Below, piece by piece: positions 5,905-41,425 of a stretch of DNA of 41,474 nucleotides. The notes beneath the pieces were generated by a model that made no database searches, was not told the DNA's origin, and worked only from the letters and a program-made list of their open reading frames with translations. The stretch covers positions 1 through 41,474 of the forward strand of contig JAYVKA010000121.1 in the NCBI GenBank assembly GCA_043768885.1, written 5' to 3'. Source of the DNA: Planctomycetota bacterium. Its GTDB lineage: Bacteria; Planctomycetota; Planctomycetia; Pirellulales; Pirellulaceae. Made by a program: the position numbers and the translations under genes. How positions within the stretch are numbered: position 1 is the stretch's first letter; the number at the start of each line of letters is the position of its first letter.

Positions 5905-5912
5905 CCAGGCGC

Positions 5913-5943: not shown

Positions 5944-5990
5944 GTCTGGATCTTATTGACCTAAAACCGCATAAAACCGCATCGATCGAA

Positions 5991-6662: not shown

Positions 6663-6896
6663 GGCGTATTTCTCCAGGTTCGATAAGCAGCCCAAGAAAA
6701 TGGGCGGGTGGGTTTTGGGTCAAATCCTGCCGTAAATCATAGCTTCTGCTAAAACCGTGTCTAGCTGATAATAGGCGCTGTTTGGGAAGTTTAACACGGT
6801 TTTAACAATTGGGAGTGTGGAAACGCCCGAATTCGATGTTTCGGGTTTGAATTGCCCGTTATCGCGATTTTGGCCCGCCGAAAATACCTGACTCAC

Positions 6897-6905
6897 GGGG
6901 GGGGG
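6897..6905. repeat. Homopolymeric G9 (C9 on the minus strand) tract in the intergenic region upstream of the PEP-CTERM gene
   Basis: Direct read: cacgggggggggacc. The tract lies about 235 nt upstream of the ATG at 6662. Confidence 0.9.
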
Positions 6906-7007
6906 ACCGGCAACTCCAAAAATGGACATCGATTCGGCAGATCTAATCACGTTTTGGTCCTTCCGCCGGTGATAGATCATCTGATACCACGATAGCCAAA
7001 TCGCGGA

Positions 7008-7556
7008 CTACTTCCCAACCTTCGGAGCAATCGTGCACAGAATCCGGCGCGACTGCTGGGATGGCGAACTTTCGACTTTGCCATGTGGTAGCAACAATTC
7101 CAGAATCTGCTGCATAACCTTGTGCCCCTCTTCAATGTGGGCCAATTCACGACCGCGGAAAAGGACTGTAACCTGCACTTTGTCCTTGTGCTCAAGAAAA
7201 CCAATCGCCTGTTTCACCTTGAACTCGATATCGTGCTCGCCAGTCTTGGGTCGAACGCGAATTTCCTTGAGCTTGATCGTGTGGGATTTGTTCTTGTGCG
7301 ACTTCTTGTTTTTCTCGTACTTGAATTTGCCGTAATCCATGATTCGGCAAACCGGCGGCTTGGACTCAGGAGCCACTTCCACCAGATCCAGGCCAATATC
7401 ACGGGCCCGGTTTAGTGCATCGCGGGTTGGAATAATTCCCAACTGCTCTCCGTTTTCATCAATCACCCGAATCGGTGAAATCCTGATCTGATCATTCAGT
7501 CTGGTCTGGTCCTTGCTTGCGTTCCGGTCACGGCTGTCGCGTTGATTGATTGCCAA
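7008..7556 (-). CDS. infC: Translation initiation factor IF-3
   Basis: [57 protein letters not shown] and the C-terminal domain [17 protein letters not shown]...VTVLFRGRE are typical of IF-3. The gene lies directly downstream of thrS. There is no ATG; the listed start is a TTG (7556-7554), and an ATC at 7550-7548 has better SD spacing. Confidence 0.9.
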
Positions 7557-23253: not shown

Positions 23254-26200
23254 TTAGACAAGAACCGGGCAAAGATCCGCCCATATCTGGCTGAGCACGT
23301 TGAGCGTCTCGCGAATTTGAGATTCGCTGTGAGACGAAGTGATAAAGAACCGGACACGTGCCTGGTCCTCGGCAACGGCCGGGTAAAGAATCGGCTGGGC
23401 ATTGATCCCGGCATTGAACAGCCGTTCCGACATTTGCAAGGCCGCCATTGAGTTGCCAGTGATCGCTGGAATGATCGGGCTGTCCTGGCTGGGGCCAGTG
23501 TTCAGGCCGGCTTTCCTCGCAAGGTCGAGAAACTGCTTGCTGTTCTTCCGCAACTTATCAACCCGTTCCGGTTCGGCTTGCAACATCCGAAGCGAGGCCA
23601 ATGCGGCTCCAACATTGCCTGGCGGAATTCCGGCGGCAAACACATAACCTGGCGTCGTGTATCGCAAATAATTTATCAGATTCCTGCTACCACCGATGAA
23701 TCCTCCGCAACTGCCAAAAGACTTGCTGAGTGTTCCCATCCAGCATTCGACATCCGTTCTCGCGATATTGAAGAGCTCTCCAATGCCGCGACCCGTTGCC
23801 CCCATTGTTCCAATCGAATGGGCTTCATCGACGAACATCCAGCACTGATGTTTCTTTTTGATATCAACAAATCGCGGCAAGTCCGGAATGTCGCCGTCCA
23901 TGCTGTACAGCCCTTCGATCGCGATCAGCACGCGGCGATAGTCCCGGCGAATTTCACCGAGAATCGAATCCAGCTGCTCCCAATTATTGTGTTCGAACGG
24001 GCGTCGGCGAGCTCCGGAAAGTTCTGCTCCCTGAATGATGCTGTTGTGGGCCAGCGAGTCGTGCAGAATCAAATCGCCTTTGCCTGCCAGGTGACCAATC
24101 ACAGATTCGTTGGTCGCATGACCACCTGGAAAAGTAATGACGTCTTCCACCCCAAGAAATTCTGAAAGTTCCTGCTCGAGCTCGCGATGGATTGATTTCT
24201 CTCCGGAAACCAGGCGGCTGGCGGAAACACTGGTTCCAAAGTTCTGAATCGCGTTGATCGCTCCCTGACTGACTTTGGGATGTCCCGACAGGCCCAAATA
24301 GTTGTACGACGAAAATGAAATCAGTTCGCGACCGTCGATTATCGTCGTGTCAGCGATTACCCCTTCGTGAACGCTGAAAAATGGATTCCGGATTCCCGAT
24401 TGCTCAATCTGTTCCTGCGCCCGTTGCAGCCGAAGAAACTCCGGCGTTTGTTCCAGAACATAATGCGACGCAGGTATCGGTTGATCTTCTGGAGTACGGT
24501 CCGGTGCCGAGACCGGCTTCAATCGGATCGCCGAACCGTTAACCTGCTTTGTGCCAATGTATTCCTGGACCGCCGCAGCAACTTCGCGAACAGTCTCGAC
24601 TTCCTGAAGTACCTCGTCCGGAATTCGCCCGCCAAACGAAGATTCGATTTCGCTGGCAATTCTCAATCGCTCCAGCGAATCCAGCCCCAGATCGACCACG
24701 ATATTGGAGTCAAGCGTCAGGTCGCGCGCCCGTTCACGGGCAATTTCCCGAACAAACCTCATCACAACATCAATTACGCCAGGATCAAGATCACCGTCAT
24801 CCTTGCAGACCCGTTCGAATTCGGAAACGTGTCCGTTCGAATGGACCGGGTCGGCGATATTCCAGCTATCCACGACCAGCAATTTGTTTTGCCGGTAGTT
24901 TTCGCGGCAGGCCCTGCGTTGGACTTTGCCGCTGGACGTTTTTGGAATGCTGTTGGCCCGAACCAATACAACTACGTCGACCGCGACTTCGTGTTCGGCA
25001 GCAACAGCCGACCGAACGATCTGGGTCAATCCATCCAGTTCCACATCGGGACCGCGTTCAACTTCACAAACAATCACCAGCTGTTCACGATCCCAATGAT
25101 CGATCGCAAAGGCTGCAGCTCCGCTGGTACGCAACCGCGGATCCGCCGATTCAACGGTTGATTCAATGTCCTGCGGATAACGGTTCACGCCCCGGACAAT
25201 AATCATGTCCTTCAAACGACCCGTCACAAACAATTCACCCTGGTCAACAAATCCCAGGTCACCAGTCCTCAACCAGGTTCGTGATGGATCGGCCGCTGTC
25301 CTGGCCCGAAAGGTTCGCTCGGATTCCTCGGGCTTGTCGAGGTATTCCCTTCCCACGCTCGGACTGGAAACCCAGATCTCGCCGATTTGTCCGTCGGGCA
25401 GAAGTTGAAGCGATTCCGGGTTTACGATGACTAGCTCTTCATCTTCGATGACATTTCCGCAGCCAACCAGTTCGTTTCCATCCGGATCGCCCGGTTCCAG
25501 TTCTCGAACCCGGTAACTGGCCAGCTCGTGCCGATCAAAAGTACGAAATGCCGGTGCCTCACTTTTCTTGCCACCCGTAATAATCAACGCGGCTTCGGCC
25601 ATTCCGTAACAGGGGTAGTGCGATTCATGCCGGAACCCATACGGCGAGAACTTCTCGCTGAATGATTTCAGAATCGCCGCCCGGACCGGTTCGGCTCCAT
25701 TGAACGCCAAACACCATGAAGACAAATCCAAATCGTCACATTGATCGTCTGATATTTTTTCGACACACAACGCGTAGCTGAAATTGGGTCCGCCGGAGAC
25801 CGTAATTTTGTGTTTGGAAATCGACTTGAGCCATCGGATGGGTCTGGTCAAAAATGAAACAGGACTCATCAACGTATTTGTGAAGCCGCCATACATCGGG
25901 TTGAGGACACCACCGATCAGGCCCATGTCATGATAGACCGGCAACCAGGTAAGTCCCTGACTGGCTGGCGTAAGTTCAAAACCCAACATGATCATCCGGG
26001 CATTGGCCATCAGATTTTGGTTGGTTAACACGACGCCCTTCGGCGAACCGGTTGAACCGGAAGTGTATTGAATCAAACCAATGTCGTTGCCAGAGACTCG
26101 CGGTTTGGTCCAGTCGCTACAAAGCTCGGTCGGGATTTCGTCTGTGCAAACCCACGGCACGGACTTCAAACTCAAAGCCTCGTCCATCAGTCCGTCTGAC

Positions 26201-26631
26201 CGTTCATAAACGTCACTGATTGTCAAAGCAACATTTGCATGGGCATCTTCGCTGATCGCATTGATCCGTCCCATATTCCGGTTTCGGCGCGGGGGATAGG
26301 CCGGGATCGGAACCACGTTGGCGTAGTAACATCCAAAAAGGGCTTCGACAAACTCCAGACCCGGGGGGTACATCATCAGGGCACGCTTGTTTTGCATGCC
26401 CATCGAAACGAGATGAGCCGCAATCGCCCGGGCCCGGGTATCCAGCTCGGCATACGTCAGCGTGACCTCGTCGTCTTCGCCATCGCGCAGGAATCGATAC
26501 GCCAGCTGTTCAGGCTGGGCAAGCGTCCAGTACCGCAGGCGGTCCAGAAAGTTGGTTTCTGGCGGAGAAAACGGGGCCAGCAATTCGTCAATTTTCACTC
26601 GGTTCAATGCTCCTCGGGTGTTACCAGCCAT
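23254..26631 (-). CDS. Tri-domain fusion: fatty acyl-AMP ligase (FAAL-like adenylation) - acyl carrier protein - PLP-dependent alpha-oxoamine synthase (Spt/BioF/Kbl family)
   Basis: Adenylation core YTSGSTGSPKG (aa 189-199), GDLGF..GRLKDMIIVRGVNRYPQDIE and SSGKVQRR. Carrier motif DLGLDSLERL (Ser652, nt 24676-24678). AOS boxes HDSLAHNS and VDEAHSIG, with the PLP lysine in GTLSKSFGSCGGF (Lys970, nt 23722-23724). The 1125-codon ORF is uninterrupted and starts with an ATG. Confidence 0.9.
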   Translation of the reverse strand: MAGNTRGALNRVKIDELLAPFSPPETNFLDRLRYWTLAQPEQLAYRFLRDGEDDEVTLTYAELDTRARAIAAHLVSMGMQNKRALMMYPPGLEFVEALFGCYYANVVPIPAYPPRRNRNMGRINAISEDAHANVALTISDVYERSDGLMDEALSLKSVPWVCTDEIPTELCSDWTKPRVSGNDIGLIQYTSGSTGSPKGVVLTNQNLMANARMIMLGFELTPASQGLTWLPVYHDMGLIGGVLNPMYGGFTNTLMSPVSFLTRPIRWLKSISKHKITVSGGPNFSYALCVEKISDDQCDDLDLSSWCLAFNGAEPVRAAILKSFSEKFSPYGFRHESHYPCYGMAEAALIITGGKKSEAPAFRTFDRHELASYRVRELEPGDPDGNELVGCGNVIEDEELVIVNPESLQLLPDGQIGEIWVSSPSVGREYLDKPEESERTFRARTAADPSRTWLRTGDLGFVDQGELFVTGRLKDMIIVRGVNRYPQDIESTVESADPRLRTSGAAAFAIDHWDREQLVIVCEVERGPDVELDGLTQIVRSAVAAEHEVAVDVVVLVRANSIPKTSSGKVQRRACRENYRQNKLLVVDSWNIADPVHSNGHVSEFERVCKDDGDLDPGVIDVVMRFVREIARERARDLTLDSNIVVDLGLDSLERLRIASEIESSFGGRIPDEVLQEVETVREVAAAVQEYIGTKQVNGSAIRLKPVSAPDRTPEDQPIPASHYVLEQTPEFLRLQRAQEQIEQSGIRNPFFSVHEGVIADTTIIDGRELISFSSYNYLGLSGHPKVSQGAINAIQNFGTSVSASRLVSGEKSIHRELEQELSEFLGVEDVITFPGGHATNESVIGHLAGKGDLILHDSLAHNSIIQGAELSGARRRPFEHNNWEQLDSILGEIRRDYRRVLIAIEGLYSMDGDIPDLPRFVDIKKKHQCWMFVDEAHSIGTMGATGRGIGELFNIARTDVECWMGTLSKSFGSCGGFIGGSRNLINYLRYTTPGYVFAAGIPPGNVGAALASLRMLQAEPERVDKLRKNSKQFLDLARKAGLNTGPSQDSPIIPAITGNSMAALQMSERLFNAGINAQPILYPAVAEDQARVRFFITSSHSESQIRETLNVLSQIWADLCPVLV

Positions 26632-28858: not shown

Positions 28859-28906
28859 CAGGCTGTCCATTTGCGAACAACGGCGTTCATTCACAGGAGA
28901 CTAACT

Positions 28907-29227
28907 TTGTCGCGACTGGAAAAACTTCAGGAAATGCTCGCGCTCGATCCGGGCGATACGTTTTTGCAATACGCCATTTCCATGGAACACAAAAGTGCCG
29001 GCAACATCGAAGAAGGCGAGGCCGGATTTCGCAAACTGATGCAAAACTCGCCTCCCTACGTCCCGGCCTTTTTCTTGCTCGGCCAGATGCTTGCCGGTGA
29101 AGACCGAATTGATGATGCCCGCACTGTCCTCCGCAATGGCATCGAACAGGCACGATCACAAGCCGACTGGCACGCAGCAGGAGAAATGAGCGAATTCCTC
29201 ACGTCACTCGGAGAGCTTGGCGAGTAA
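28907..29227 (+). CDS. Small TPR-like helical repeat protein
   Basis: Helical repeat pattern (LALDPGDTFLQYAISMEHKSAGNIEEGEAGFRKLMQNSPPYVPAFFLLGQMLAGEDRIDDA). The TTG at 28907 has AGGAG (28895-99) 7 nt upstream. The listed TTG at 28871 is less well supported. Confidence 0.55.
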   Translation: MSRLEKLQEMLALDPGDTFLQYAISMEHKSAGNIEEGEAGFRKLMQNSPPYVPAFFLLGQMLAGEDRIDDARTVLRNGIEQARSQADWHAAGEMSEFLTSLGELGE

Positions 29228-29279: not shown

Positions 29280-29630
29280 CTAACGGCCCTTATTGAGCCA
29301 TGCCGAGAACTCGCCTCGTGAGGGTGGGTTGGGCATCCAGGAAGTGTCTGGCAGCGGCGTTTTCATGGCCACATCGACCGTTAGCCAACCGCGCTTCAGA
29401 GGCATGTGACTGATGGTTCCCTTGCGGGTCGTCCAGGCGAAAGATTTTTTCTTCTCGGATTCCATGGCAACAGCCAGCGTCGTACGAACGGCCTGTGAAA
29501 CGTATTCGAACACGGTCTCGAAATCCCCTTCGGCCCAAAGCGAAGGCGCTTCGAATCCCTCGACACCGGCCATTTTCCCAGGCAAACCAAGTCCGGCAGC
29601 GGCGTTCTTGAGTGCCACGGGAAGCGTCAT
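29280..29630 (-). CDS. Hypothetical protein (116 aa)
   Basis: ATG at 29630 (MTLPVALKNAAAGLG...). The listed longer ORF, to 29807, would read through three stem-loops and into the upstream gene, so the short form is preferred. I recognise no family. Confidence 0.45.
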   Translation of the reverse strand: MTLPVALKNAAAGLGLPGKMAGVEGFEAPSLWAEGDFETVFEYVSQAVRTTLAVAMESEKKKSFAWTTRKGTISHMPLKRGWLTVDVAMKTPLPDTSWMPNPPSRGEFSAWLNKGR

Positions 29631-29656
29631 TGTTGGTGGCGAGCCAGTAGAATGTG

Positions 29657-29724
29657 GCCGTTTCTGCTGCCTTCCTTTTTCGATTCGCTGGCGCTCATCG
29701 AAAAAGGAAGGCAGCAGAAACCCC
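29657..29724. repeat. Perfect 20-bp inverted repeat (24 bp with extension) forming a long stem-loop
   Basis: tttctgctgccttccttttt (29661-80) is the exact reverse complement of aaaaaggaaggcagcagaaa (29701-20). The loop ends cgat/atcg add 4 more pairs, leaving a 12-nt loop. Confidence 0.85.
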
Positions 29725-29772
29725 TTGCAGGGGGCCCAGTGAATGAACCCGAATCGTAATAGTTCGGGTTCA

Positions 29773-30195
29773 CTAACTTCGTAAGACTTCGGGTTCAGGG
29801 ACAGCAACCAATATGCAAGCCAATCCCGCGCAGATCGCAGGCAAAACTGTACCGAAAGATGCCTGGTTTCCCAGCATCGCCGAAAACCCCAACCCTATTC
29901 CTCCGCCTAACGGGATGGCCATGAGCAAGCGAAGTGGTCGCCGGATGTTCTGCGGACGGCCAGTCTTTCGCGACTGTCCGAACGTTGCCAAATCCAGACC
30001 ATCCAGCAATTCAACAACTTCTTCCAGCCGGTTTCGCGGAACCAGAATTCTTGATTTCCTGGGCTCGTCTGCAATCACGTGATACTCAATTCCAAATGCT
30101 TCCAGCCGACCGATACTGCATCTGGCCTTTGATGAATCAGCAACAATCGCCGTACGCCATTGGCGATCTTCGGATTTATCAACGAGTAATGCCAT
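29773..30195 (-). CDS. Hypothetical membrane protein: small N-terminal soluble domain plus C-terminal TM helices
   Basis: MALLVDKSEDRQWRTAIVADSSKARCSIGRLEAFGIEYHVI... is followed by LLMAIPLGGGIGLGFSAML and VLPAICAGLACILVAV. The gene is on the same strand as the GT2 gene and 78 nt downstream of it. Confidence 0.5.
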   Translation of the reverse strand: MALLVDKSEDRQWRTAIVADSSKARCSIGRLEAFGIEYHVIADEPRKSRILVPRNRLEEVVELLDGLDLATFGQSRKTGRPQNIRRPLRLLMAIPLGGGIGLGFSAMLGNQASFGTVLPAICAGLACILVAVPEPEVLRS

Positions 30196-30279
30196 GGTCA
30201 ATCCCGGACAAGTGATTCAGCGTCCCTGTCCCATGATAACCAGGAACAACGAATGGCAAATACCAGACCGATTTGAGCT

Positions 30280-31197
30280 TCAAACCTGCTCCCGACGATC
30301 ACCAATTTGAAGTCGCTGTCCTCGGGCCAAACCTGCGCGGGCCAAGTGACCGAGCCAGACGGGTGAACCGGCGATGCCCCGTTTCAGCTGATACATCAAC
30401 CGGTTCCAGTATTCCTGAACCCACAGGCTGGTCCTGCTCTTCGTCCATGGATTTCCCTTCGCTGCGAGTATTTTTCCCTGACCAACGAAATAATCGTGGA
30501 CGTATTTTGACGACGCCCGTTCTGGCGGAATCAGGTGATCGACATGGGCATCGGGGACCCATCTTCCAGTCATTCCCTGGCTGCACAATCGCCGAAGCAG
30601 TTCCAATTCGTCTTCGCCGACACACGCGGTTCCGCGGCGCCCCAGCGATGTCGAAAAGAGATTCGCCCGCTGAATGTCCCCACGCACCGCAAAATTGGCC
30701 CCGTAGGGCAAGCGGGTCTCGTCAAGCTCAATCGGTTCCTCTCCCAGGTCCCGTTCTGCAAAACAGCCCCGTAGCGTATTCCAATTCGTGTCAATCCAGT
30801 CCGGTTGCCCATTCGTAAACAACGGACGAATCGCGCCGCCAAAGAATGCTGCTTCCGGAAACCGGTGCGCGACCCGGACGAAATTCCAAAGCCAATCCGG
30901 CGATACAACTACATCATCATCCGTCCAAAGGATCAGGTCGGCTACCGATTTTTGGACAGCCAGGTTCCTCGCATGAGTGTGTCCCTGTTTTGTCTCGACC
31001 GCCGTGACCAGGGGCAATCGGTCCCGAAACAAATCAAGGACTTCGCCAGTCGAGTCGTTCGAGTTATTGTCGATGACGATTGCCTGCCAGGGACAACCGT
31101 CGGGAACCCGGAGGCGACAAAGTGAATCGAGCGTTTGTCGCAGCAAATCGGCGCGGTTCCAGGTGCAAATCGCAATATCAACAGAACCGACAGTCAT
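30280..31197 (-). CDS. Glycosyltransferase family 2 (GT-A)
   Basis: VDIAICTWNRADLLRQTLDSL, VIDNNSNDSTGEVL, ARNLAVQKSVADLILWTDDDVVVSPDWL (DxD), and a GANFAVR-type acceptor loop. Confidence 0.85.
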   Translation of the reverse strand: MTVGSVDIAICTWNRADLLRQTLDSLCRLRVPDGCPWQAIVIDNNSNDSTGEVLDLFRDRLPLVTAVETKQGHTHARNLAVQKSVADLILWTDDDVVVSPDWLWNFVRVAHRFPEAAFFGGAIRPLFTNGQPDWIDTNWNTLRGCFAERDLGEEPIELDETRLPYGANFAVRGDIQRANLFSTSLGRRGTACVGEDELELLRRLCSQGMTGRWVPDAHVDHLIPPERASSKYVHDYFVGQGKILAAKGNPWTKSRTSLWVQEYWNRLMYQLKRGIAGSPVWLGHLARAGLARGQRLQIGDRREQV

Positions 31198-31247
31198 TTG
31201 GATTTCGATTTGCAGCGGAAATTGGAGCGATAAACAAGGAATCCATT

Positions 31248-32399
31248 CTAGCGTTTCGGTTCCAACAGTCGTTCCAGTCGCTTTGCAAACTCGGCAATCG
31301 GGTCCTTTGAATACCGCTCGCGGATTCGTTTACCTGCCAACTCGCCCATCTCCTGCCATCGATCACGACTGTTCCACGCCCGTTCGAGCGCCTGGTCCAG
31401 CAAATCAATCGTCGCGCCAGGAGCTATAAATCCCGACAATCCATCGTCAATTAATTCCCGGTTGCGGCCGGTATCCGTCGTAATCGCCATTCGATTGCTC
31501 AGCATCGCTTCGACAACGACCAGGGCCGCCCCTTCATATCGCGACGGCAACAACAGTCCGTGGCACTGCTCCCAAATCTTTGACACCATGTTCTCGAATC
31601 CGGCAATCTTCAGCTGTTTCTCCAAACCGTAACGCGCAATCAGGTCCTTGAGTTGTCGTCCATTTCCCTGGTCGTGGCCGTAAAAATGGACCTCGATGTT
31701 ACGGTCCTTCCAGTGTGGCCTTCGCAAAACGTCGACGATCAAATCCTGCCCCTTGGATTGAAAGTGCAATCGTCCAACACAGGCCAACCGAAGCGTCCCG
31801 TCCGGCTCCGGCCAACGGACCTTTGCATTGCGATCGACATTAAACGGGTTGTCCACAATCTCGGAATTCGGAAGCTCCATCGCGAGATTGGTTTCCACCT
31901 TGTGGCGGTTTTCTTCGGAGACAAAAAACACACGGGCCGCGTTGCGATACCATTTGCGGTATTGCTCGACACAATCTCCCGGTATGAAAAAGAAGTTGCT
32001 CGCGCTTTGCACATTGATCGCGTAGGGAACGTTTGCCGCCATACATTCATCAGCCACATGAACGCGATCGGGATGATAGCCCAGCGTCGCCAATACCAGG
32101 TCTGGTTTGGTGCGAACGATCCAGCTGTCAGCGTTCTTTCCGTTTTTTCGTTTGCCAATCGATCGCAGGCGTTTTCGCTGAATCTGCCAAAAACTGGCGG
32201 GTTGGTCGCGATAAAAGAGCTCTCCGCCGTTCTCTTCAATTTGCTTTAGATGCCAGGCTGCCTCGGGCCACCATTTGAAATTGACGCAGATCGAATGTCC
32301 CTGCTTCTGCAACAGGCGCGCAGTCCGCCACCACAGCTCTTCGCTGCCTCCCCAGGAGACGCCGCTCATACAGGAATAAAAACCAATTTTCACTGGCAA
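31248..32399 (-). CDS. Glycosyltransferase family 4 (GT-B)
   Basis: C-terminal domain with an E-x7-E box: LLLPSRYEGAALVVVEAMLSNRMAITTDTGRNRELIDDGLSGFI. The start is a TTG at 32399 or a GTG at 32393. Confidence 0.85.
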   Translation of the reverse strand: MPVKIGFYSCMSGVSWGGSEELWWRTARLLQKQGHSICVNFKWWPEAAWHLKQIEENGGELFYRDQPASFWQIQRKRLRSIGKRKNGKNADSWIVRTKPDLVLATLGYHPDRVHVADECMAANVPYAINVQSASNFFFIPGDCVEQYRKWYRNAARVFFVSEENRHKVETNLAMELPNSEIVDNPFNVDRNAKVRWPEPDGTLRLACVGRLHFQSKGQDLIVDVLRRPHWKDRNIEVHFYGHDQGNGRQLKDLIARYGLEKQLKIAGFENMVSKIWEQCHGLLLPSRYEGAALVVVEAMLSNRMAITTDTGRNRELIDDGLSGFIAPGATIDLLDQALERAWNSRDRWQEMGELAGKRIRERYSKDPIAEFAKRLERLLEPKR

Positions 32400-32434
32400 A
32401 CCAAGGCAGACTTGTCAATTGTCGTTGGAAGTGG

Positions 32435-33265
32435 TCACTCAGCTTCTGGTCCGGACGGCTGCGAAGTTGCATCCGAACCGGAGTCGGCGTTCAGCAAACG
32501 GATCTCCGAACGCGGGCTGTTTTTGTTATCGGCAGGCTCGACACTTTTCGGCGGATTCACTTGGCTCTCCGGGATCCGGTACGATTTGACCGCGAAATCG
32601 TAAATGGACTTGAGAAGAGGATAATCGTGGTAAAACTGGGCCCGAAGGTGTCCTGGGATGACTTCATCGTACTCCGAAACGTTCAATAGCGGCACTTCGA
32701 TTCGGGGCATCCCCAGTATTTTGGCAAGGTTACAAACCGAATTATCGAGGTCTTCGACAATACCGATATAGATGAACCTTTTTGCCAACCGCTCCTGGTA
32801 GTTATCCAGAGTAATGTCCTGGGGGAAATGGTGAAACAGCCAGTATGGGTAACTTCGCAAGTAATCATCTACGGACGGGAACAGGCTTGAAAAATCGACC
32901 TGTTTGCCCCGGAACCAGAATCGCCCGGCGGAACTTCGCCCCTTTGCGAAAAAGTACATCGATACCGTCAGATCGAATGGATCTCGAAGCACCGTGAAAT
33001 ACTGATCGACTTCGGGATAGTAATAGGGCAAACCATATCCGCGACCGTGATTGAAATGTCCGTGAATGCACCGGACATCCGGACGCCAATTCCCGTTTTC
33101 GTCGCGGGTATCGACCTTGGGAAGCAAAATGTCCCTGGTCTCGTCCTGATTCAACTTGTGATAGCCGGTGCCAAACCACTTTTTGAGAACCTGAACGAAA
33201 CTCGTTCCCGCGCATTTTGGCACATGCGTGAAAATAACCGGTCGTTCTGGATCGTATTTTTTCAT
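32435..33265 (-). CDS. Sulfotransferase, Sulfotransfer_2-like (carbohydrate sulfotransferase type)
   Basis: 5'-PSB loop FTHVPKCAGTSF (aa 13-24, nt 33197-33230 in listed-ORF numbering) and a 3'-PB-like VLRDPFDLTVSMYFF. These match the motif pattern of PAPS-dependent 2-O/6-O-type sulfotransferases. The ATG at 33265 is the second codon of the listed ORF. Confidence 0.8.
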   Translation of the reverse strand: MKKYDPERPVIFTHVPKCAGTSFVQVLKKWFGTGYHKLNQDETRDILLPKVDTRDENGNWRPDVRCIHGHFNHGRGYGLPYYYPEVDQYFTVLRDPFDLTVSMYFFAKGRSSAGRFWFRGKQVDFSSLFPSVDDYLRSYPYWLFHHFPQDITLDNYQERLAKRFIYIGIVEDLDNSVCNLAKILGMPRIEVPLLNVSEYDEVIPGHLRAQFYHDYPLLKSIYDFAVKSYRIPESQVNPPKSVEPADNKNSPRSEIRLLNADSGSDATSQPSGPEAE

Positions 33266-33376
33266 CAAGCAATAAAGAGCTGTTGTCGCCGTTCGGCGGT
33301 CTGTTTCGTGTAGATTCGCCTAAAACGATTAAGCCCTCGTCACTGAATTGCGAGAGTGTAGACGAATCGGCGAAGT

Positions 33377-34732
33377 TCATGTTTCCTGCTCGTCATCATC
33401 GCGATTGGCTTCGTCGCCAATATCGACGTCGTTTTTCCTGAGGTAAGTCTTGAGTCTTTTCAGTCGTTGGCGCATATCCAGATTGCGGGCCAATAACGCG
33501 TCATTCCGGGCCACCAAGCGATCACAATGTTCCGCATTTGCGTCCATCTGTTGCAGAAGCCGGTTGTTTTCCTCGGGCAGTCCCTCGAGCCGACTGACCG
33601 CGAGGTTCAGCTCCGAAACCAGCCTTGCCCGGTCCGCATCCCGAAAATAATGGTTTTCGGGGAAAAGTGCTGCAAGGTCAAAGTCCGGTTCCACCTTCGA
33701 AAATCCCCGACTCGTATCTTCCAGTATTCGATGCGGCAGTTTCAACGGACGCCCCCGCGATCTGGCGAGTTCCCCCGCGTCGATCATCCGGGCAATCAGT
33801 TCGACCATGCGTGGAGTTGCAGGCGATTGACATTCCAATTGGTCGTGAAGCACCGAATTCTGAAACAACATTTTCGGTGCCGGTGGGTTGGCCAATTCCT
33901 GAAGCGTTGAATTCAAATGCTTGGGAGCATTGATCATCCAGGCAGACGGAACAAAATGCGGCTTGTTATGAAAATCCAACAATGCCGTCGGTCGCCCCTT
34001 CAGGATACTTTCCAGGAATACAGTCGATGGCGTAACGATCACTGCATCGCTCGAATCAATCGCAACGGACAAGCCAGGTCGTTCGTCGGGGTTGGTTTCC
34101 GGCAGTCCCAGTTCCCGTTCCAATCCATCAGTCAGTCGCCATTCCACACGCGTCGGTCGGCCATCAATCAACGGATTTTGTTCGAACCGTTGTTGAATCA
34201 ACTGCAAGGACTCGATTACTGCCTGACGTTGCCGTTCTCCAAACGAAGGCGTACTGGCTGTCGCAATCAGCAGTCGAAACTCACCATCCGTGCGAAGGGG
34301 TGCCGGGGTTTGCGACAGTAGTCCATCCAGCCGCGGCAAACCCACCGATTCACATTTTCCAATATTCCCCCAGGATTCAATGGCTCGAACCTGTCCCCGG
34401 CCAAGGCACGCGAGTTTATGTCCCATTAACGGCTGAAAAACACTTCCATCTCCCAAATCGGGATGTTCGAAAATGTTTCGGTATTCGAGAATTCCATCTG
34501 CCAGAACAAGCACCGGAATGTTTCCCGCCTCCGTGACGCGTCGAAGTGCCTGGACGTCTTCCCACCGGTAATGCATATGGGAAATGACAATCGCAGCGTC
34601 GTCAGGCACTGGCCACGATGCCGGAAAATCACCGACGATTTCCACTGGAACGGGCAAACTGTCCAGCCACGGCAAATACAGCTGGCTCTTCCTGGCGAAT
34701 CGACAAAGTACGTAGGCCTTCCTACCACTCAT
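33377..34732 (-). CDS. Hypothetical protein: GT-B-like/capsule-biosynthesis-like body with a C-terminal coiled coil and an acidic tail
   Basis: ...SVGLPRLD..., FRLLIATASTPSF and AIDSSDAVIVTPSTVFLESILKGRPTALLD resemble the donor-binding half of GT-B enzymes. The last roughly 90 aa are heptad-like (LVSELNLAVSRLEGLPEENNRLLQQMDANAEHCDRLVARNDALLARNLDMRQRLKRLKTYL) and end in DDDEQET. The ATG at 34732 is preferred. Confidence 0.6.
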   Translation of the reverse strand: MSGRKAYVLCRFARKSQLYLPWLDSLPVPVEIVGDFPASWPVPDDAAIVISHMHYRWEDVQALRRVTEAGNIPVLVLADGILEYRNIFEHPDLGDGSVFQPLMGHKLACLGRGQVRAIESWGNIGKCESVGLPRLDGLLSQTPAPLRTDGEFRLLIATASTPSFGERQRQAVIESLQLIQQRFEQNPLIDGRPTRVEWRLTDGLERELGLPETNPDERPGLSVAIDSSDAVIVTPSTVFLESILKGRPTALLDFHNKPHFVPSAWMINAPKHLNSTLQELANPPAPKMLFQNSVLHDQLECQSPATPRMVELIARMIDAGELARSRGRPLKLPHRILEDTSRGFSKVEPDFDLAALFPENHYFRDADRARLVSELNLAVSRLEGLPEENNRLLQQMDANAEHCDRLVARNDALLARNLDMRQRLKRLKTYLRKNDVDIGDEANRDDDEQET

Positions 34733-34900
34733 ATTGAAAATCCGGGAAAGCGAACGATGTTCACACTTCGATGGCACAGCCTTCGCCAATACAGTCGTTC
34801 GCGAACGTGCATGATCTCCCTTTCACACTTCCAACTCAAATAAACCTTCAGCAGGGCGGGAACAACCTGCACCAAAAATGCCTTTTCAGCTGGTTTCGTA

Positions 34901-36649
34901 TCAGTCTTTTTTGTTCGGCGGAAGTTCCGACGGATCTTTCCTGTCTGGCATCTCGCCTTCCATCCTCTTTTTCTCTCCCTGTGGTTCAGAGGTGGCGTTC
35001 TCTTTTACAACTTTGGTTGGCAGGCCTTCGACATCCCCGGTCGCAGCCCGGTTGTCGATCAGGTCTTGCATGGGGAAATCTTCGGGCCATGGAATTCCCA
35101 AAAGCGTGGTCATTTGCCGAAATTCCCTGGCTGTGTCAATCATCGATTCACCGAGATCGCCCTGCGGCAGCATTGGGTACTTGTCAAACAACGCGTGATA
35201 CCTGGAAAAAACATCCAGCAAAGATGTAACGGCACCAGTCTTTGTCAGGACTTTCTTCTGGGTCGAGTAGTCAAATCTGTATTCGTCGTCGAAAATTGAC
35301 TTGCGGCGCATTTCGCTTGCGTCGTACCAGGCTTGTCGGGCCAACATGCCCTCTTCGGTTTGTTCCATCTTGCAACGGTCCACCCAATACAGGAAGTTCG
35401 CTGTCCCCTGGTATTTCTCCGTCATTTCAAGCTGGTTCGAAAGCGCATCGATTTCTGAAAGAATTCCCCTGGCCTCTGCAATATGCTCGGGAGGAAGTTG
35501 CTCAAAAATCATTTGATCAATTTTTCGCATTTCAAAATTGACCATCTCATTCAAGGCCCGGTATTTGGGCATTTCAAACTCGCCAATTGTCTCCATCGGA
35601 GAGCGTTGCATCTTGATTTGCTCAGCCGAAAACCCAAGATTTTCATAGATCGAGGGCATTTCATTTTCCCGGACATCGGGCAACATTTGGTCGAGTTTCT
35701 CCCTCAATCGGACCACGTCCTGAAACGCGCGAGACAATCCACTCAGCGTCACTTCATTGCCAATGGACGTAACGATCCGCTGATCACCGTACTCGTCCCA
35801 TTTGTCTTCGGCTTCGCGCCAAATGTCGCGGATATCGTCATCGGTGCGAAACTCGGTTTCCAGCGTGATCGCCTGGTGGCGAATTTGTGAGGGCTTTTTC
35901 ATATAGTAAACCAGGTCGTTTGTTCGCTTCGTCACGCCTTCGTTTTGGACCAGCTTTTGTGATTTGTCGTACCACCAATAGGCCATTCGCCAGTGGTCGT
36001 GCCCATAGACCGGGTGGCGAGTGTCGTAAAGATTGGGTGCGATGTACTGGGACATCCGGCTTTGGAAATCGGTGTCAGCCCGAAACATCCGGCGGTACTG
36101 GAATTTCTCGTCGGAATTCCCGATTTTCATCCCCGTAAAATCACCAAGTCCGTCCAGAATCTTGTGTTCACGCAGGTTGTACTGAATTCCGCTTGCCAAA
36201 AACTCGATTCCCTTCCGAACCCATGTGTAACGGTATTCGAAATCATCGAACTCAAGGGAGATGTTGTACGAAAGATTGTGGGCCTGAAATTCCCAGACTC
36301 GCACGAAGTTCGGCTGGATTTTGATCAGGGCGTTCAGGGTCGCCTCAAAGTTGTCCCATTCCTCCTTCTTCTTTTGTTCGTTGGCCTGTAACCACAGCAG
36401 GTTGACTGCCACGCCCCTCAGGCCCATTGTTGCCAGCTTCATTGTCTCGCTGGTCGGATCAATTTCGCTCAGCTGAGACTGCGATAGCCGGTACTCCATT
36501 CTCATTTCCGAGATGACACCGCCCGCGTCGCCACCAACGCCGGTGCCTGTCGTACTGGCTGGACGCGATATCAGCGAAACCGGTATCAACAATGCGCCAA
36601 CCAGAACAAGGTAGACGACTTTGCGAAGAAAAGGACTTAGCCGGTTCAT
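34901..36649 (-). CDS. Membrane-anchored hypothetical protein (582 aa), translationally coupled to the ABC permease
   Basis: N-terminal anchor MNRLSPFLRKVVYLVLVGALLIPVSLI, a large W/Y/F-rich helical body, and a Lys/Glu/Pro-rich tail. Its ATG (36649-47) overlaps the permease TGA (36648-46) as ATGA. I recognise no family. Confidence 0.7.
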   Translation of the reverse strand: MNRLSPFLRKVVYLVLVGALLIPVSLISRPASTTGTGVGGDAGGVISEMRMEYRLSQSQLSEIDPTSETMKLATMGLRGVAVNLLWLQANEQKKKEEWDNFEATLNALIKIQPNFVRVWEFQAHNLSYNISLEFDDFEYRYTWVRKGIEFLASGIQYNLREHKILDGLGDFTGMKIGNSDEKFQYRRMFRADTDFQSRMSQYIAPNLYDTRHPVYGHDHWRMAYWWYDKSQKLVQNEGVTKRTNDLVYYMKKPSQIRHQAITLETEFRTDDDIRDIWREAEDKWDEYGDQRIVTSIGNEVTLSGLSRAFQDVVRLREKLDQMLPDVRENEMPSIYENLGFSAEQIKMQRSPMETIGEFEMPKYRALNEMVNFEMRKIDQMIFEQLPPEHIAEARGILSEIDALSNQLEMTEKYQGTANFLYWVDRCKMEQTEEGMLARQAWYDASEMRRKSIFDDEYRFDYSTQKKVLTKTGAVTSLLDVFSRYHALFDKYPMLPQGDLGESMIDTAREFRQMTTLLGIPWPEDFPMQDLIDNRAATGDVEGLPTKVVKENATSEPQGEKKRMEGEMPDRKDPSELPPNKKD

Positions 36650-38655
36650 GTGTTACCTGCAATTTCACGGGTTTTCAATGTGAAGTAACCAATTAATGAA
36701 GACCCCGCAAAAAAGGCCAGGGCGATCAAAATGGCTACCATGATTCTGTCGTTGGATATGGAATACCCGTACGTCAAATATCTGGAAAAGTCGAGATCTG
36801 AAAAGCTTGGGGCGAGATACGTAAGCGAATTCAGCCCAACCAGAATCAACTCGTCCGTCTTGACGATCACCGTGTTGAACCAGTTGGTCTCAAGGGCCGA
36901 AACCATGTTCTCCTGTCGAATAATGCGCAAGAACGACTCAATCGGCCCACCCCCCTCCGGTCCAGTTCCTTCGGCCGTGGGAGCAAGCATTTTTCGAATA
37001 AATGGAGTGCAGAAACCGATCAGGAATATTACCAGCGAACCCAAAATGGTCACCGGCGTGCTGAGAAAAGTGCTAAGCGCGACACCGATCGATACGACCA
37101 CCATCATTTGGGCCCACAAACCCAAATAGCCTTTTACGAAGTTCCACCAGAACACGTCGTCCTGGCCCCGGAAATACAAGTCGGCACGCGCGACGCCAAT
37201 GTACTGGTTCAGGTCTTCGCAGCGCAGAATCACCTTCAGCCGATTTCCCTTGCCCCCGGCAAAATCCTCGAACAATCCATAAATCCCCGATTCCAAAATC
37301 GTTCCGTCAGGAGCGATTCGGCGGGCATTCATGCGGTCGCTGATCGGAATCGACTGGATCGTCATTTCGCGAGTCTCAAGGATCATCGGCTCGCTTTGCA
37401 ATTTGGGTTCCGTTTCCGGATCCTCCGGAATGCTTTCAAATTGCAAACTGGCAATCACCCGCTTTTGAATGTCACCCACAAACGTTCGAAAGATCGAAGG
37501 GGTCATTTCGATGACCAGTGACTCACCATCCGGAAACTGCTTCCTGGTCAGGTTTTCAAAATTGAACTCGGCACGGGACAGCGTCTCGGGAACGGCCGGA
37601 GTGCCGCCATCAATAAAGCTGCGATAATTCCATTCTTTGCCAATATTGGTTCCGCCCAGGGTTCCGGACGAGTCAAAGCAGTCCAGACCGGCGGAATAGA
37701 TTGGCCTTCGGGCGCGAAAATATCCTGCGGAATTCCCCAACTCAATGGTCGCAGATTCACCACTTCCGCTCACATTCGCCGAATGCGTGTGGCCAGACGA
37801 AGGCTGCACCATGACCCGGCGATAAACAACCTTTCCGTCAGCACGTGTGTAACTCTCAAGAATATTCTCGGAGTTCAGCGGGGGATGACTGGATGGATTG
37901 CGCACATCTTCAATCAACTCGATGTCATGTCGATGCCCGTCGTCAAATGTCGTCTCGCCCCACTGCACGGCGTTGTCTGACACGCGTCCGCCACGTGAAT
38001 TCAATCGCTGATCCGGATTGATCTCGCTCAAACTGGAAATCGCCTGCCGATCACCGGCAACCTGGTGCGTATGTGAAAGGCCCCGCCAAACGAAAATGTA
38101 ACTGACGATCCCCATCAACAACAAAAGGCCGGTCACCACGATCCCGAAGCCAAGAATTCTGCCGATCACAATTTCTGTCGCCCGTACCGGTTTCGTAACA
38201 ACGGTAAAAATCGTGTGGTTCTTGATGTCTTCGGGCAAACTGAAGGCACTAATCAACAACCCGACCAACAAGACCAGCAACTGGGTGCCAAACATCACAA
38301 AGTTGACGTAAACCCGCTCGGGATGTTCTACGTTGGTCAAAAACCATCCGCTGAACAACAGCATCGACGCAAAAATCAGAAAGGTCACAAGAATTACGCG
38401 GCGTCGCAGGGCTTCCTTTACAGCCAATCTGGAAATCGCCCAGGTGCGACGATACGACGTGCCAAGGAAATCGCCGGGTGCCGAAGCAAGGACCCCGGCA
38501 ACCGAATAAAAACCTTCAATCGGGCCGTGCCGAAAACTCGCGACCAGAAAACCGAAAATGATTCCCAAAACGCCGCCTGAAATCACCAGGGCGAGAAAGG
38601 TGAACAGGCCGCTGAACAGCCAATTCAATACGTTGGGAAAGCTCTCGACAACCAT
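36646..38655 (-). CDS. ABC-2/NosY-like transporter permease with a roughly 310-aa extracytoplasmic insertion
   Basis: The ABC-2-type start of the core is ISRLAVKEALRRRVILVTFLIF. There are 4-5 TMs before aa 190 and 4-5 after aa 500. The insert (aa ~191-500, nt ~37156-38085) carries three HxH motifs: LSHTHQV, DGHRHDI and SGHTHSA. Confidence 0.75.
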   Translation of the reverse strand: MVVESFPNVLNWLFSGLFTFLALVISGGVLGIIFGFLVASFRHGPIEGFYSVAGVLASAPGDFLGTSYRRTWAISRLAVKEALRRRVILVTFLIFASMLLFSGWFLTNVEHPERVYVNFVMFGTQLLVLLVGLLISAFSLPEDIKNHTIFTVVTKPVRATEIVIGRILGFGIVVTGLLLLMGIVSYIFVWRGLSHTHQVAGDRQAISSLSEINPDQRLNSRGGRVSDNAVQWGETTFDDGHRHDIELIEDVRNPSSHPPLNSENILESYTRADGKVVYRRVMVQPSSGHTHSANVSGSGESATIELGNSAGYFRARRPIYSAGLDCFDSSGTLGGTNIGKEWNYRSFIDGGTPAVPETLSRAEFNFENLTRKQFPDGESLVIEMTPSIFRTFVGDIQKRVIASLQFESIPEDPETEPKLQSEPMILETREMTIQSIPISDRMNARRIAPDGTILESGIYGLFEDFAGGKGNRLKVILRCEDLNQYIGVARADLYFRGQDDVFWWNFVKGYLGLWAQMMVVVSIGVALSTFLSTPVTILGSLVIFLIGFCTPFIRKMLAPTAEGTGPEGGGPIESFLRIIRQENMVSALETNWFNTVIVKTDELILVGLNSLTYLAPSFSDLDFSRYLTYGYSISNDRIMVAILIALAFFAGSSLIGYFTLKTREIAGNT

Positions 38656-38735
38656 TTCAAAATCCGGGTTTCTTGTTCGACAAAGTCTTTGAACCGGAGG
38701 CTTCTTGCCTCACAAACATCACAGCAACCACAACA

Positions 38736-39680
38736 CTATTTTCGGGCCCGTTCAGACCGGTGTCCCGGCCGTTGTTGGCTTTCCCGCACAATATCCAGGA
38801 ACAGTTCTTCCAGGGTTGTACGCGGGTTTTCAGTCGAAAGAAGCTCGCCACCATGCTTTTGGATCACATCCCGAATCTCTTTCATCGCTGCCTCAGGCAA
38901 GTTCTTTACGCGAACCTGAGTTTCATCAGTAACCTTCAGCAGCGAATCGACTCGTCCTAGTTCCTTTAGCTCACCCTGATATAAAATGGCAATCCGGTCA
39001 CAGACGTCCTGAACGTCAGCCAACAGGTGGCTGCACATGATGATCGTTTTACCCTGCTCCTTGAGTTCCAGGATCAGGTCCTTCATTTCGCGTGTACCCA
39101 GTGGGTCCAGACCGCTGGTCGGCTCGTCCAGCATGATCAGATCCGGATCGTTGATCAGGGCCTGGGCCAATCCGATCCGCCGAACCATCCCTTTCGAATA
39201 TTCACGCAGTTGTCGGCGGCGAGCGTGAGCCAACCCGACCTTTTCGATCAGTTGCCGCGATCGCTCCTTGCGAACTTTGGCCGGCATGTCAAACAGCCGC
39301 CCGTAAAAGTCCAAAGTCTCTTCCGCGTTCAGATATCTGTACAAGTATGATTCTTCGGGCAGGTAACCAATTCGTTCGTTCTTGGTGACTTCGGTCGTGT
39401 CCTTGCCAAAAACGAGCGCCCGACCGCTGGTTGGAAAAAGCAATCCCAGCAATAATTTGATCGTTGTGGATTTGCCCGAGCCGTTAGGTCCCAACAATCC
39501 AAAAATCTCGCCCTTACGCACATCCAGGTCCAGGGCGTTCAATGCACGTACTTTCTGCCGGCCCCAAAAATCGCGGTAAACCTTGGACAGGTTCTGAGTC
39601 TCGACAACCACATCCGGGTTGTAGTCCGGGTTGGTTTGCTCCAGTTTCTTGGCTTTGGACTCAGCAGTAGTTGACGCCAT
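38736..39680 (-). CDS. ABC transporter ATP-binding protein (ABC-2/DrrA-like subfamily)
   Basis: Walker [14 protein letters not shown], signature-region variant [15 protein letters not shown], Walker [13 protein letters not shown] and H-loop CSHLL. The ATG at 39680 has GAGGAG 10 nt upstream. The listed start at 39764 is probably too long. Confidence 0.9.
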
Positions 39681-39991
39681 TCCGTTTATGCTCCTCGCAA
39701 GTTGCGGGTGTTTCTGGGTTCCGACCGGTCCGGCAAGCACCCGCAGCGAACGGAAGAACCCCATTCAGCAACTACGAATCTCAAACACCGGTGGTTTTTT
39801 CCCGAAATCCCCATATTTTCGGGCTTCCGGAATAATGCCATGATAGAAGTACGACGAATTGCGTTCAAGTTCCCGTAGGCGGTTTGGCGACAGGATCACC
39901 GGCATTGGCCAATTTCAGTCCCATTCAATAATCGCCTGAGCCTTGCCAATCTGAATTCCCAACTGTGGTCGAGCGACGGATACCTCTCTTC

Positions 39992-41425
39992 ATGCAACGC
40001 AAATCCGGTTTGGGTCCAATCGAAAGACTGTTTGCCCGCGTCAATTACGAACGTCAACCCTGGCCATCGCGCGAAGGCCTGAAACTGGACATGATTCGCG
40101 AATTGGCCAATCGTTTGGGCGACCCCCAACTGTCTTACCCAGTTATCCACCTAGCCGGAACCAAAGGAAAAGGGACCACAACGCGATTGATTTCGGAGAT
40201 CTTCCAGGCATCGGGATTGCGGGTCGCCGCTTACACATCCCCACATCTTGAATCGTTCAATGAGCGTTTTTGTGTCGATGGAATTCCGGTCCCAATGTCC
40301 GAGGTTGAAAAAGTACTCGAGCTGATTTGGCCCCATGTCGAAGAGCTTGACCGGGATGCCCACGACAAGGAACGCCGAAGTCTGACGTTCTTCGATATTT
40401 CGACGGCTTTGGGTTTCATGATTTTCTCGCGATCGAAACCCGATCTTGTCGTCCTGGAAACAGGGCTTGGTGGACGCCTCGATTCCACGAATATTTGCCA
40501 ACCAGCCGTCACGGTTATCACATCGATCAGCCTCGACCACTGCCGTCAACTGGGAAACAACCTGACCGACATCGCATCCGAAAAGGCGGGAATCATCAAG
40601 GCTGGTGTGCCCGTCATCTGTGGAGTTCCGGAGAATACAGCCCCCGCCAACCGGATCGGAGAAATCGCTGAACAGCGAAATGCAACGCTCATTCAGATCG
40701 GACGAGATTTTGATTGCAACGCTATTTCGTTGGCTCAAAATTCAACCAGTTTTTCGACCAACGGAAAATCCTGTTTGGGGAAGACGTACCAATATCGCGA
40801 TCTGGAACTCAAACAATTTGGCGAACATTCCGCTGCGAACGCTGCGATTGCAATTGCCGCATCCCATGCCTTCCGTGATGTGTCTGGTCGTGATTTTTCG
40901 GCCTCGCAGGTTCGATTCGCCTGCTCTCGACCCGGCTTGCCTGGCCGCATCGAAGTCGTCTCGCAAAAGCCGTTGGTGATTTTGGACGTCGCTCACAATC
41001 CAGCATCGGCCGAAGCCCTGGTAACGACTTTGAATCAACAGCTGGAAGGATGGACGCAAGCCAAAATCCGGACTTTTCTCGTTTCCATCAGCCGTGACAA
41101 AGACCAACCGGAAATCATTCGGCGTTTGTTGCCATGTGCCGATCGAATCGTCTTCACCCAATTCCGGGATAATCCACGAGCGACCGATCCAGTCACATTG
41201 GCCGATCTGGCGTGCGACATTGCAACTGCTGAATTGTCGCCCGGTCAACCTGGTATCCGAATCGATATTGAGATGGATCCCGTTCAGGCGTGGATGCAGA
41301 TTGCGGCAGGGTGCCGGCCCGACCATGCCATTTGTGTGACGGGTTCCATTTTCCTGGTTGCAGAGCTTCGGCATTACGTACAAAAGGCATTTCAACAGAA
41401 TCAGAACCACTCCGTCCAGGGATGA
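39992..41425 (+). CDS. folC: Bifunctional folylpolyglutamate synthase / dihydrofolate synthase (Mur-ligase family)
   Basis: P-loop IHLAGTKGKGTT, TSPHL, ETGLGGRLDSTN, SISLDH and AGIIK, plus a C-terminal Mur-ligase domain (LDVAHNPASAEAL). The ATG at 39992 is preferred over the listed GTG at 39965. Confidence 0.85.
   Translation: MQRKSGLGPIERLFARVNYERQPWPSREGLKLDMIRELANRLGDPQLSYPVIHLAGTKGKGTTTRLISEIFQASGLRVAAYTSPHLESFNERFCVDGIPVPMSEVEKVLELIWPHVEELDRDAHDKERRSLTFFDISTALGFMIFSRSKPDLVVLETGLGGRLDSTNICQPAVTVITSISLDHCRQLGNNLTDIASEKAGIIKAGVPVICGVPENTAPANRIGEIAEQRNATLIQIGRDFDCNAISLAQNSTSFSTNGKSCLGKTYQYRDLELKQFGEHSAANAAIAIAASHAFRDVSGRDFSASQVRFACSRPGLPGRIEVVSQKPLVILDVAHNPASAEALVTTLNQQLEGWTQAKIRTFLVSISRDKDQPEIIRRLLPCADRIVFTQFRDNPRATDPVTLADLACDIATAELSPGQPGIRIDIEMDPVQAWMQIAAGCRPDHAICVTGSIFLVAELRHYVQKAFQQNQNHSVQG

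Follow-up and report, generated by a model that had tools for sequence, protein, structure and literature searches.

A seven-gene run in a planctomycete genome probably joins two units of separate history, an order-wide ABC operon and a putative cassette for sulfated-glycan assembly

The subject of this analysis is a run of seven consecutive open reading frames (ORFs), all on the minus strand from 39764 down to 30280, in a stretch of 41,474 nucleotides (nt) of planctomycete DNA (assembly GCA_043768885.1, contig JAYVKA010000121.1, here C121; order Pirellulales, family Pirellulaceae). The whole stretch is referred to as the window. Read in the direction of transcription, the run begins with the gene for an ATP-binding cassette (ABC) ATPase of the DrrA/GldA type (38736..39764), followed by a divergent ABC-2 permease of 669 amino acids (aa; 36646..38655) and a 582-aa protein (34901..36649). 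These three are called module A. Beyond a 168-nt spacer lies module B, with orf470, which encodes a GT-B-fold/coiled-coil protein (33377..34732, within a 470-aa ORF that extends to 34789), the sulfotransferase gene ST2 (32435..33268), a family 4 glycosyltransferase gene, GT4 (31248..32399), and a family 2 glycosyltransferase gene, GT2 (30280..31197). The layout given in a first-pass annotation of the letters is correct: the recomputed gaps are 80, -4, 168, 108, 35, and 50 nt, the negative value being an ATGA overlap between the permease and 582-aa genes. The same annotation had started the ATPase at 39680 and had seen no convincing terminator inside the run, and both statements hold up. An inner ATG lies at 39680 and homologue alignments begin at residues 15 to 43, making this the likely start, and 24 weak terminator-like sites were counted against 18.8 +/- 4.8 in shuffled sequences, none of them in the intergenic gaps of the run. 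Counts at shuffle level, for terminators and for promoters alike, are uninformative. From adjacency and shared strand in this one metagenome bin it had been proposed that the ABC module exports a sulfated glycan built by the genes that follow it. Co-directional runs of seven genes are commonplace in bacteria, however, and are no evidence for a single operon. Our conclusion is that the run probably comprises two units with separate histories, in which module B serves cytoplasmic glycan assembly for a Wzm/Wzt export pathway and module A became its neighbor by rearrangement.

Module A stands apart as an older unit, an operon of three genes that is core to the whole order. The comparison set comprised 40 relatives of the window's genome (G000; G, C, and L numbers stand for genomes, contigs, and loci) drawn from its genus, family, and order. 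Both the permease and the 582-aa protein occur in 40 of these 41 genomes, the exception being a genome that is 72% complete; the 582-aa homologue always stands directly after the permease, and the order ATPase-permease-582-aa gene is the same in all 29 loci retrieved. The ATPase is 69-87% identical across the order, and in the phylum at large 101 of 151 genomes have the conserved N-terminal domain of the 582-aa protein. What comes next is a different gene in each of 18 loci, unrelated from one to another and often convergent, as it is in G012; thus, the module A operon ends after the 582-aa gene.

The module A ATPase matches PF00005 with 104.6 bits, and in NCBIfam it comes closest to drrA (225 bits) and GldA (191 bits), without reaching the cut-off for either; among the best 25 matches there are lantibiotic-protection types, and TagH, KpsT, and Wzt are absent. 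The permease has no Pfam or NCBIfam match, PF01061 included, and a profile search found no sequence relative in the PDB, while in its family 6 of 19 homologues carry an ABC2_membrane_2 match, a weak one (best E 1.6e-7). It has an insert of about 300 aa with three HxH pairs (H195/H197, H241/H243, and H289/H291) that do not vary among 19 sequences, representing 17 families of the order, and look like a metal site. One permease homologue bears a PDZ domain. The 582-aa protein, likewise without a Pfam or NCBIfam match, is predicted by AlphaFold2 (mean predicted local distance difference test score, pLDDT, 79.1) to have one N-terminal membrane helix (residues 6-28) and thereafter only helices, giving a TPR-like body; a Foldseek search of the PDB returned nothing at E <= 0.001, only generic TPR matches with E above 0.007. 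By the families of its ATPase and permease, module A does not belong with the polysaccharide-type ABC exporters (Wzm/Wzt, KpsMT, TagGH). Nor does it have a conserved glycan-gene neighborhood: this is the case for the 18 order-wide loci, and of the 80 loci described below that contain an orf470 homologue, 79 lack module A. Of known systems, NosY/NosF-type and other ABC-2 systems share with it a DrrA/GldA-type ATPase and an ABC-2 family permease. It differs from NosY/NosF in the HxH-bearing insert and the obligatory, membrane-anchored TPR-like partner, and in being conserved across the order whatever its neighbors, without a NosD/NosZ context.

For module B, the earlier view of its sulfotransferase and glycosyltransferase genes as a glycan synthesis set is supported by relatives, in which they form a conserved glycan-building cassette. 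Its first gene, orf470, almost certainly starts at ATG 34732, since ten orthologues share the N-terminus M-x-x-x-K-A-Y-I-L-C-R-F at that point; the product is then 451 aa long. All its named homologues are hypothetical proteins of Planctomycetota. An exact look-up of the window's protein gave no match, it has no Pfam or NCBIfam match, and a sequence search against solved structures found none. Homologues match coiled-coil Pfam families, and 4 of 28 show weak matches to DUF6716, a putative glycosyltransferase. AlphaFold2 (mean pLDDT 81.5) predicts a two-domain GT-B-type fold, then a single helix of about 68 residues (366-433), the coiled coil, and an acidic tail. Foldseek relates the fold to TagF (3l7l, E 1.9e-7), SenB, GlgM, and UDP-GlcNAc 2-epimerases. 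The idea that orf470 is a KpsC/KpsS or GT99-type transferase of Kdo (3-deoxy-D-manno-octulosonic acid) was dropped, being without support among the 50 best fold matches. Paralogues of about 36-40% identity occur in other glycosyltransferase clusters, in this genome (L048, G000:C310, 6224-13452) and elsewhere (L046, G040:C39, 7878-14031), together with GT4, GT8, GT2/GT21, and a GT2-GT4 fusion; the orf470 family may be a general component of planctomycete glycan assembly.

The second gene, ST2, is assigned as a Sulfotransfer_2 carbohydrate sulfotransferase dependent on 3'-phosphoadenosine 5'-phosphosulfate (PAPS), with a PF03567 score of 24.7 bits against a cut-off of 22; the orthologues in L055 and L097 score 24.8 and 25.0. 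It is 62-76% identical in all 13 genomes of the genus. The protein aligns with heparan sulfate 2-O-sulfotransferase (3f5f/4ndz) across VPKCAGTS, IHGH, and RDPFDLTVS, thereby retaining the 5'-phosphosulfate-binding loop, the 3'-phosphate-binding segment, and the position of the catalytic histidine. Because these PAPS-binding and catalytic motifs align, ST2 looks catalytically competent. GT4 (PF00534, 76.6 bits) has EpsE as its best NCBIfam match, below the cut-off, and always follows ST2 in relatives; GT2 (PF00535, 73.6 bits) scores best with HpsE, at 124 bits against a cut-off of 300, and is the last gene of the cassette in relatives. In 5 loci (L108, L119, L120, L122, and L124) the sulfotransferase after orf470 is only 33-36% identical to the window's and is followed by the same GT4, which suggests that the sulfotransferase has been swapped within the cassette.

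The two modules differ sharply in distribution, and their adjacency is rare. Among the 41 genomes, module B, judged by ST2 and orf470, is confined to one genus (g1, 13 of 13 genomes) and, in part, g8, and in G002, G003, G004, G005, G007, G009, and G010 it lies on a contig other than that of module A. The closest relatives of orf470 have other genes upstream: a cupin gene in L070 (77% identity) and, in L055 (67%) and L056 (64%), a ketoacyl synthase gene together with a divergently oriented one of about 780 aa. The A-B junction was found only in this genome and in its close relative G013, where contig C246 carries the 3' end of the 582-aa gene and then the cassette. An assembly chimera was considered and is ruled out by this same join in an independent bin, which shows both that the junction exists in the DNA and that its spread is limited to a small sub-clade. 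The G013 bin contains two 94%-identical copies of the 3' end of the 582-aa gene, one at the junction (L031, C246, 13812-14400) and one elsewhere (L032, C129, 9127-9717), which diverge about 30 nt past the stop codon and a second time near residue 400. The double copy might come from a partial duplication or from the presence of two strains in the bin. The spacer of the window (34733-34900), which would be the rearrangement junction, contains no terminator-like site, and 11 aligned upstream regions of orf470 have no shared motif and no conserved promoter. Across 39 other species the modules are adjacent in none, nor are they in L070, L055, or L056. The first-pass annotation had named a lack of synteny in related genomes as an outcome that would refute its proposal, and with adjacency only here and in G013, that is essentially the outcome obtained.

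If module A is not the usual partner of module B, then what is? In G009 a single strand reads PDZ-KpsF-Wzm (PF01061)-Wzt (PF14524)-orf470-ST2-GT4-GT2, and G007 has the same junction of Wzt with orf470. In G010 a second sulfotransferase gene, ST1, is split between two contigs: its first half comes after Wzt at the end of one, and its second half opens the other, which continues into the cassette; the two ends share 18 identical nt. A wider collection, made up entirely of Pirellulaceae or Mariniblastus-type bins, gave 80 species-level loci that contain an orf470 homologue. In 39 of these the cassette is seen with at least 1 kb of upstream sequence, and in 22 of the 39 it is linked to Wzm/Wzt, the gene directly upstream being ST1 (Sulfotransfer_1/3) in 21 cases and Wzt in 1. 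The ancestral-type gene order is PDZ-KpsF-Wzm-Wzt-ST1-orf470-ST2-GT4-GT2, for which L097 was annotated gene by gene as the representative; its Wzt orthologue scores 63.7 bits with Wzt_C. Module A is upstream of the cassette in none of the 39 species, and the sole match to the 582-aa protein in all 80 loci is on the G013 contig. In a maximum-likelihood tree of orf470 the Wzt-linked state occurs on both sides of the main 50-row clade (support 95/97), and the window falls in a derived, well-supported six-row clade of rearranged loci. Hence, the linked cluster would most simply be the ancestral state. Genes related to sulfur also recur beside Wzt in other arrangements. In G004 a Sulfotransfer_1/3 gene overlaps the end of wzt (L073, C6, 10641-11624), and the four-gene cassette is elsewhere; in G002 the gene that converges on wzt encodes a SulP sulfate permease fused to a carbonic anhydrase (L072, C4, 7755-10136).

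The genome of the window has kept the exporter part of this cluster, on another contig. C201 carries PDZ-KpsF-Wzm-Wzt, in which KpsF scores 307 bits with TIGR00393 (cut-off 203.7), Wzm (6148-7071) scores 39.2 bits with PF01061 (cut-off 26.9), and Wzt (4837-6132) has both PF00005 and PF14524 (Wzt_C), the latter with 40.2 bits (cut-off 30.4). The ATPase domain of this Wzt scores best with TagH and a galactan Wzt, while the module A ATPase scores best with DrrA/GldA. Where relatives have the cassette after wzt, C201 continues on the same strand (L071, 101-4717) with a 629-aa protein without a family match and a DUF1800/DUF1501 pair. On the C121 side, the downstream flank of module B is still the ancestral one, as two genes show. 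An ORF of 118 aa on the plus strand (28871..29227), convergent on module B and probably a real small gene, is a conserved downstream neighbor: its homologues in L095 and L097 are likewise convergent and stand right behind GT2, and those in L113 and L116 occupy the matching site, 1.7-1.8 kb past the orf470 homologue. The homologue from L097 shows a weak match to TPR_Slam. Farther downstream on the minus strand is a gene for 1,125 aa (23254..26631), labelled a fusion of fatty acyl-AMP ligase (FAAL), acyl carrier protein (ACP), and oxoamine synthase, with homologues of 58-62% identity 2-4 kb downstream of module B in L095, L097, L112, and L165 and also downstream of the orf470-only loci L113 and L116; the two genes that come after it in the window do so in L097 as well. 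Since this flank is kept and KpsF-Wzm-Wzt is on C201, the breakpoint is placed immediately upstream of orf470. The rearrangement would thus have cut the cluster just upstream of module B and joined the 3' end of module A to it. A search for the "empty site" in G000 led nowhere: homologues of the L055/L056 flank on C604 run into unrelated genes, the other flank is scattered over small contigs, and none could be demonstrated.

The mechanism proposed is that GT4 and GT2 would extend a lipid-linked glycan on the inner face of the cytoplasmic membrane, a sulfotransferase would transfer sulfate to it from PAPS, the coiled-coil GT-B protein would organize or terminate the chain, and Wzm/Wzt, acting in trans, would export the finished sulfated glycan, which a WaaL-like ligase might then attach or an outer membrane polysaccharide export (OPX)-type protein hand on. 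Candidates for both last roles are encoded in G000 (three genes of the Wzy_C/O-antigen-ligase type and two Poly_export genes). Should transcription run on from module A into module B, this would reflect only where the genes happen to lie. With respect to the first-pass annotation, then, the kind of pathway, an ABC-dependent sulfated glycan locus, is supported by the linkage of the cassette to an ABC exporter in relatives, whereas the choice of exporter is not: the better candidate is the Wzm/Wzt pair on C201, and a functional link of the cassette to the adjacent ABC module is most likely wrong. It had also been suggested that PAPS synthesis genes be located in the genome. An APS (adenosine 5'-phosphosulfate) kinase is present (C251:3717-4232, 207.5 bits), as is a CysD fragment at a contig end (261 bits over half of the model), but neither CysN nor Sat was found in G000, which is 83% complete.

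The proposal of a sulfated lipid-linked glycan exported by Wzm/Wzt is made because the planctomycete cluster has the gene-level hallmarks of capped-chain systems: a Wzt with a carbohydrate-binding module (CBM), polymerizing glycosyltransferases, a coiled-coil protein, and small-group transferases. In CBM-bearing Wzt systems, as known from Klebsiella and Escherichia coli O antigens, export is limited to chains with a terminal cap, which the CBM binds (PMC11231755). Such systems always include a coiled-coil protein, a characteristic marker of the strategy (PMC11231755). The nearest parallel is E. coli O9a and Klebsiella pneumoniae O3 (WbdA, WbdD, Wzm, and Wzt with CBM), which share with the cluster a Wzm ABC-2 permease, a Wzt ATPase with Wzt_C, cytoplasmic GT4/GT2-type glycosyltransferases, a long coiled-coil protein, and a small-group transferase as possible source of the cap. 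The differences are that the host is a planctomycete, that the candidates for the last role are one or two sulfotransferases per cluster rather than a kinase/methyltransferase, that the coiled-coil protein has a GT-B-like domain of no named family, and that in this genome the assembly genes lie physically apart from wzm/wzt. A second parallel is with the Kdo-terminated Klebsiella O12 and O4 antigens, whose WbbB (GT99) and ORF7 (GT137) join a glycosyltransferase-like domain to a coiled coil, as orf470 does. O4 ORF7 has been described as two Rossmann-like domains resembling GT-B, a helical bundle, and a C-terminal coiled coil, without database annotation (PMC11231755). By that description, orf470 has the same order of parts. 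The ancestral planctomycete cluster also contains KpsF, the first enzyme of Kdo synthesis, though this may be the housekeeping KdsD for lipopolysaccharide, and GT99 and GT137 are not among the 50 best Foldseek PDB matches of orf470.

Could the sulfate itself be the cap? In analogy to the enterobacterial systems, we offer as a tentative idea, one that we think rather unlikely to prove right as it stands, that a sulfate ester added by a sulfotransferase of the cluster might end the chain and be read by the carbohydrate-binding domain of Wzt as the export signal, with the coiled coil of orf470 setting chain length. If true, enterobacterial O antigens, with their methyl, methylphosphate, and Kdo caps, would have a sulfate-based counterpart in a phylum known mainly for degrading sulfated glycans. 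Sulfate as the cap and a terminal sugar such as Kdo added by orf470 (KpsF is in the cluster) are both conjectural, as is any choice of acceptor. For the sulfotransferase, the comparison with heparan sulfate 2-O-sulfotransferase (PF03567), in which a VPKxxxTS loop, HGH, and an RDPxxxxVS segment align, extends over about 100 residues with E 0.074, and ST2 is bacterial and cytoplasmic, lacking the Golgi anchor. Among bacterial precedents, the xss cluster for synechan, a cyanobacterial sulfated exopolysaccharide, also groups sulfotransferases with glycosyltransferases; export there is of the Wzx/Wzy type, and no coiled-coil GT-B protein is known from it. The best-scoring family for the GT2 here, HpsE, is cyanobacterial.

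Several points weigh against the assignment of module B to a Wzm/Wzt pathway. All the genomes compared are metagenome bins. The linkage to Wzt is frequent and not obligatory, with 17 of the 39 species having module B among various other neighbors, away from Wzt; linkage of this kind supports a function without proving it. In G010 the join depends on the 18-nt overlap and matching residue numbers. In the genome of interest the two parts are unlinked, module B on C121 and Wzt on C201, so that they would have to cooperate in trans, and no terminator separates module A from module B, leaving room for read-through transcription. At 83% completeness, G000 yielded no ST1 orthologue and no initiating transferase of the WecA/MraY type (PF00953). 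The latter absence includes MraY and probably reflects the incompleteness of the genome.

Three other explanations were weighed. The best of them, still an unlikely one, is that module B modifies a membrane lipid, for example by making a sulfated glycolipid on a long-chain amino lipid from the 1,125-aa FAAL-ACP-oxoamine synthase, and so needs no Wzm/Wzt. In its favor are the presence of the synthase gene 2-4 kb downstream of the cassette here and in L095, L097, L112, and L165, the 17 species in which the cassette has no adjacent exporter, and the lack, on reading by eye, of any obvious membrane segment in the four module B proteins. However, the genes that separate the synthase from module B are several, of mixed orientation, and vary from genome to genome, so the closeness looks like inherited proximity rather than an operon, and a second downstream flank without the 1,125-aa gene is equally common (L115, L121, L143, L148, and L155). 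The direct link of the cassette to KpsF-Wzm-Wzt(CBM) on one strand is far closer and far more often seen, and three enzymes of glycosyltransferase type plus a coiled-coil protein fit the assembly of a polymer. A specifically sulfated glycosphingolipid, built with the 1,125-aa lipid synthase, was ranked low for the same variation in content and orientation of the intervening genes.

Next comes the original proposal, that the adjacent ABC module exports the product of the sulfotransferase and glycosyltransferases and that all seven genes form one operon, which we consider improbable. In its favor, all seven genes point the same way, the gaps are short, no convincing terminator was seen, and the independent G013:C246 assembly means that the arrangement is real DNA and has persisted for some time. 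On the other side, module A is order-wide and module B is restricted to a genus and its Pirellulaceae relatives; the two are adjacent in none of the 39 other species, nor on the three contigs of closest relatives; the gene downstream of module A varies freely; the module A ATPase is of the DrrA/GldA and not the TagH/Wzt/KpsT type; and a dedicated Wzm/Wzt has been kept in this very genome. Least probable is that module B has been left stranded in this genome, without its links to Wzm/Wzt and ST1, and is either non-functional or being lost, as the broken cluster of this lineage, the missing ST1 orthologue, and the signs of a rearrangement hot spot in the tree and the varied flanks might suggest, because its four ORFs are intact and full-length with catalytic motifs kept, the cassette is intact in 17 species in which it is unlinked from Wzt, which argues for its working in trans, and Wzm/Wzt and KpsF are intact on C201.

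The reading of the run as two units, with module B belonging to a Wzm/Wzt pathway, changes what the locus has to say. A link of the neighboring exporter to the pathway receives no support from comparison with about 120 related loci. What emerges instead is that a large group of Pirellulaceae carries a conserved cluster of eight or nine genes, with CBM-bearing Wzm/Wzt, KpsF, the coiled-coil GT-B protein, GT4, GT2, and one or two sulfotransferases. The cluster would put endogenous sulfated surface glycans on a concrete genetic footing in a phylum that has been studied mostly as a consumer of such polymers, and it offers a testable candidate for a new kind of export-licensing cap. No paper was found in the literature searched that ties sulfotransferases to Wzt or to the making of glycans by planctomycetes, though a 2019 survey of terminator chemistry in Glycobiology may already list cases.

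The remaining features of the region are minor. Downstream of GT2, two small orphan ORFs of 142 and 175 aa continue on the minus strand (29280..30201), without a Pfam match above the cut-off. They are probably outside the system and may not be genes at all, since neither about 170 related loci nor the rest of the genome yielded a homologue; the DNA here could be non-coding, or a piece inserted in this lineage where the cassette ends. At the other end, module A is bordered upstream by folC on the plus strand (39965..41425; TIGR01499 score 326.9 bits, cut-off 162.65), which points away from the ABC ATPase gene here as in nine related loci within the family.

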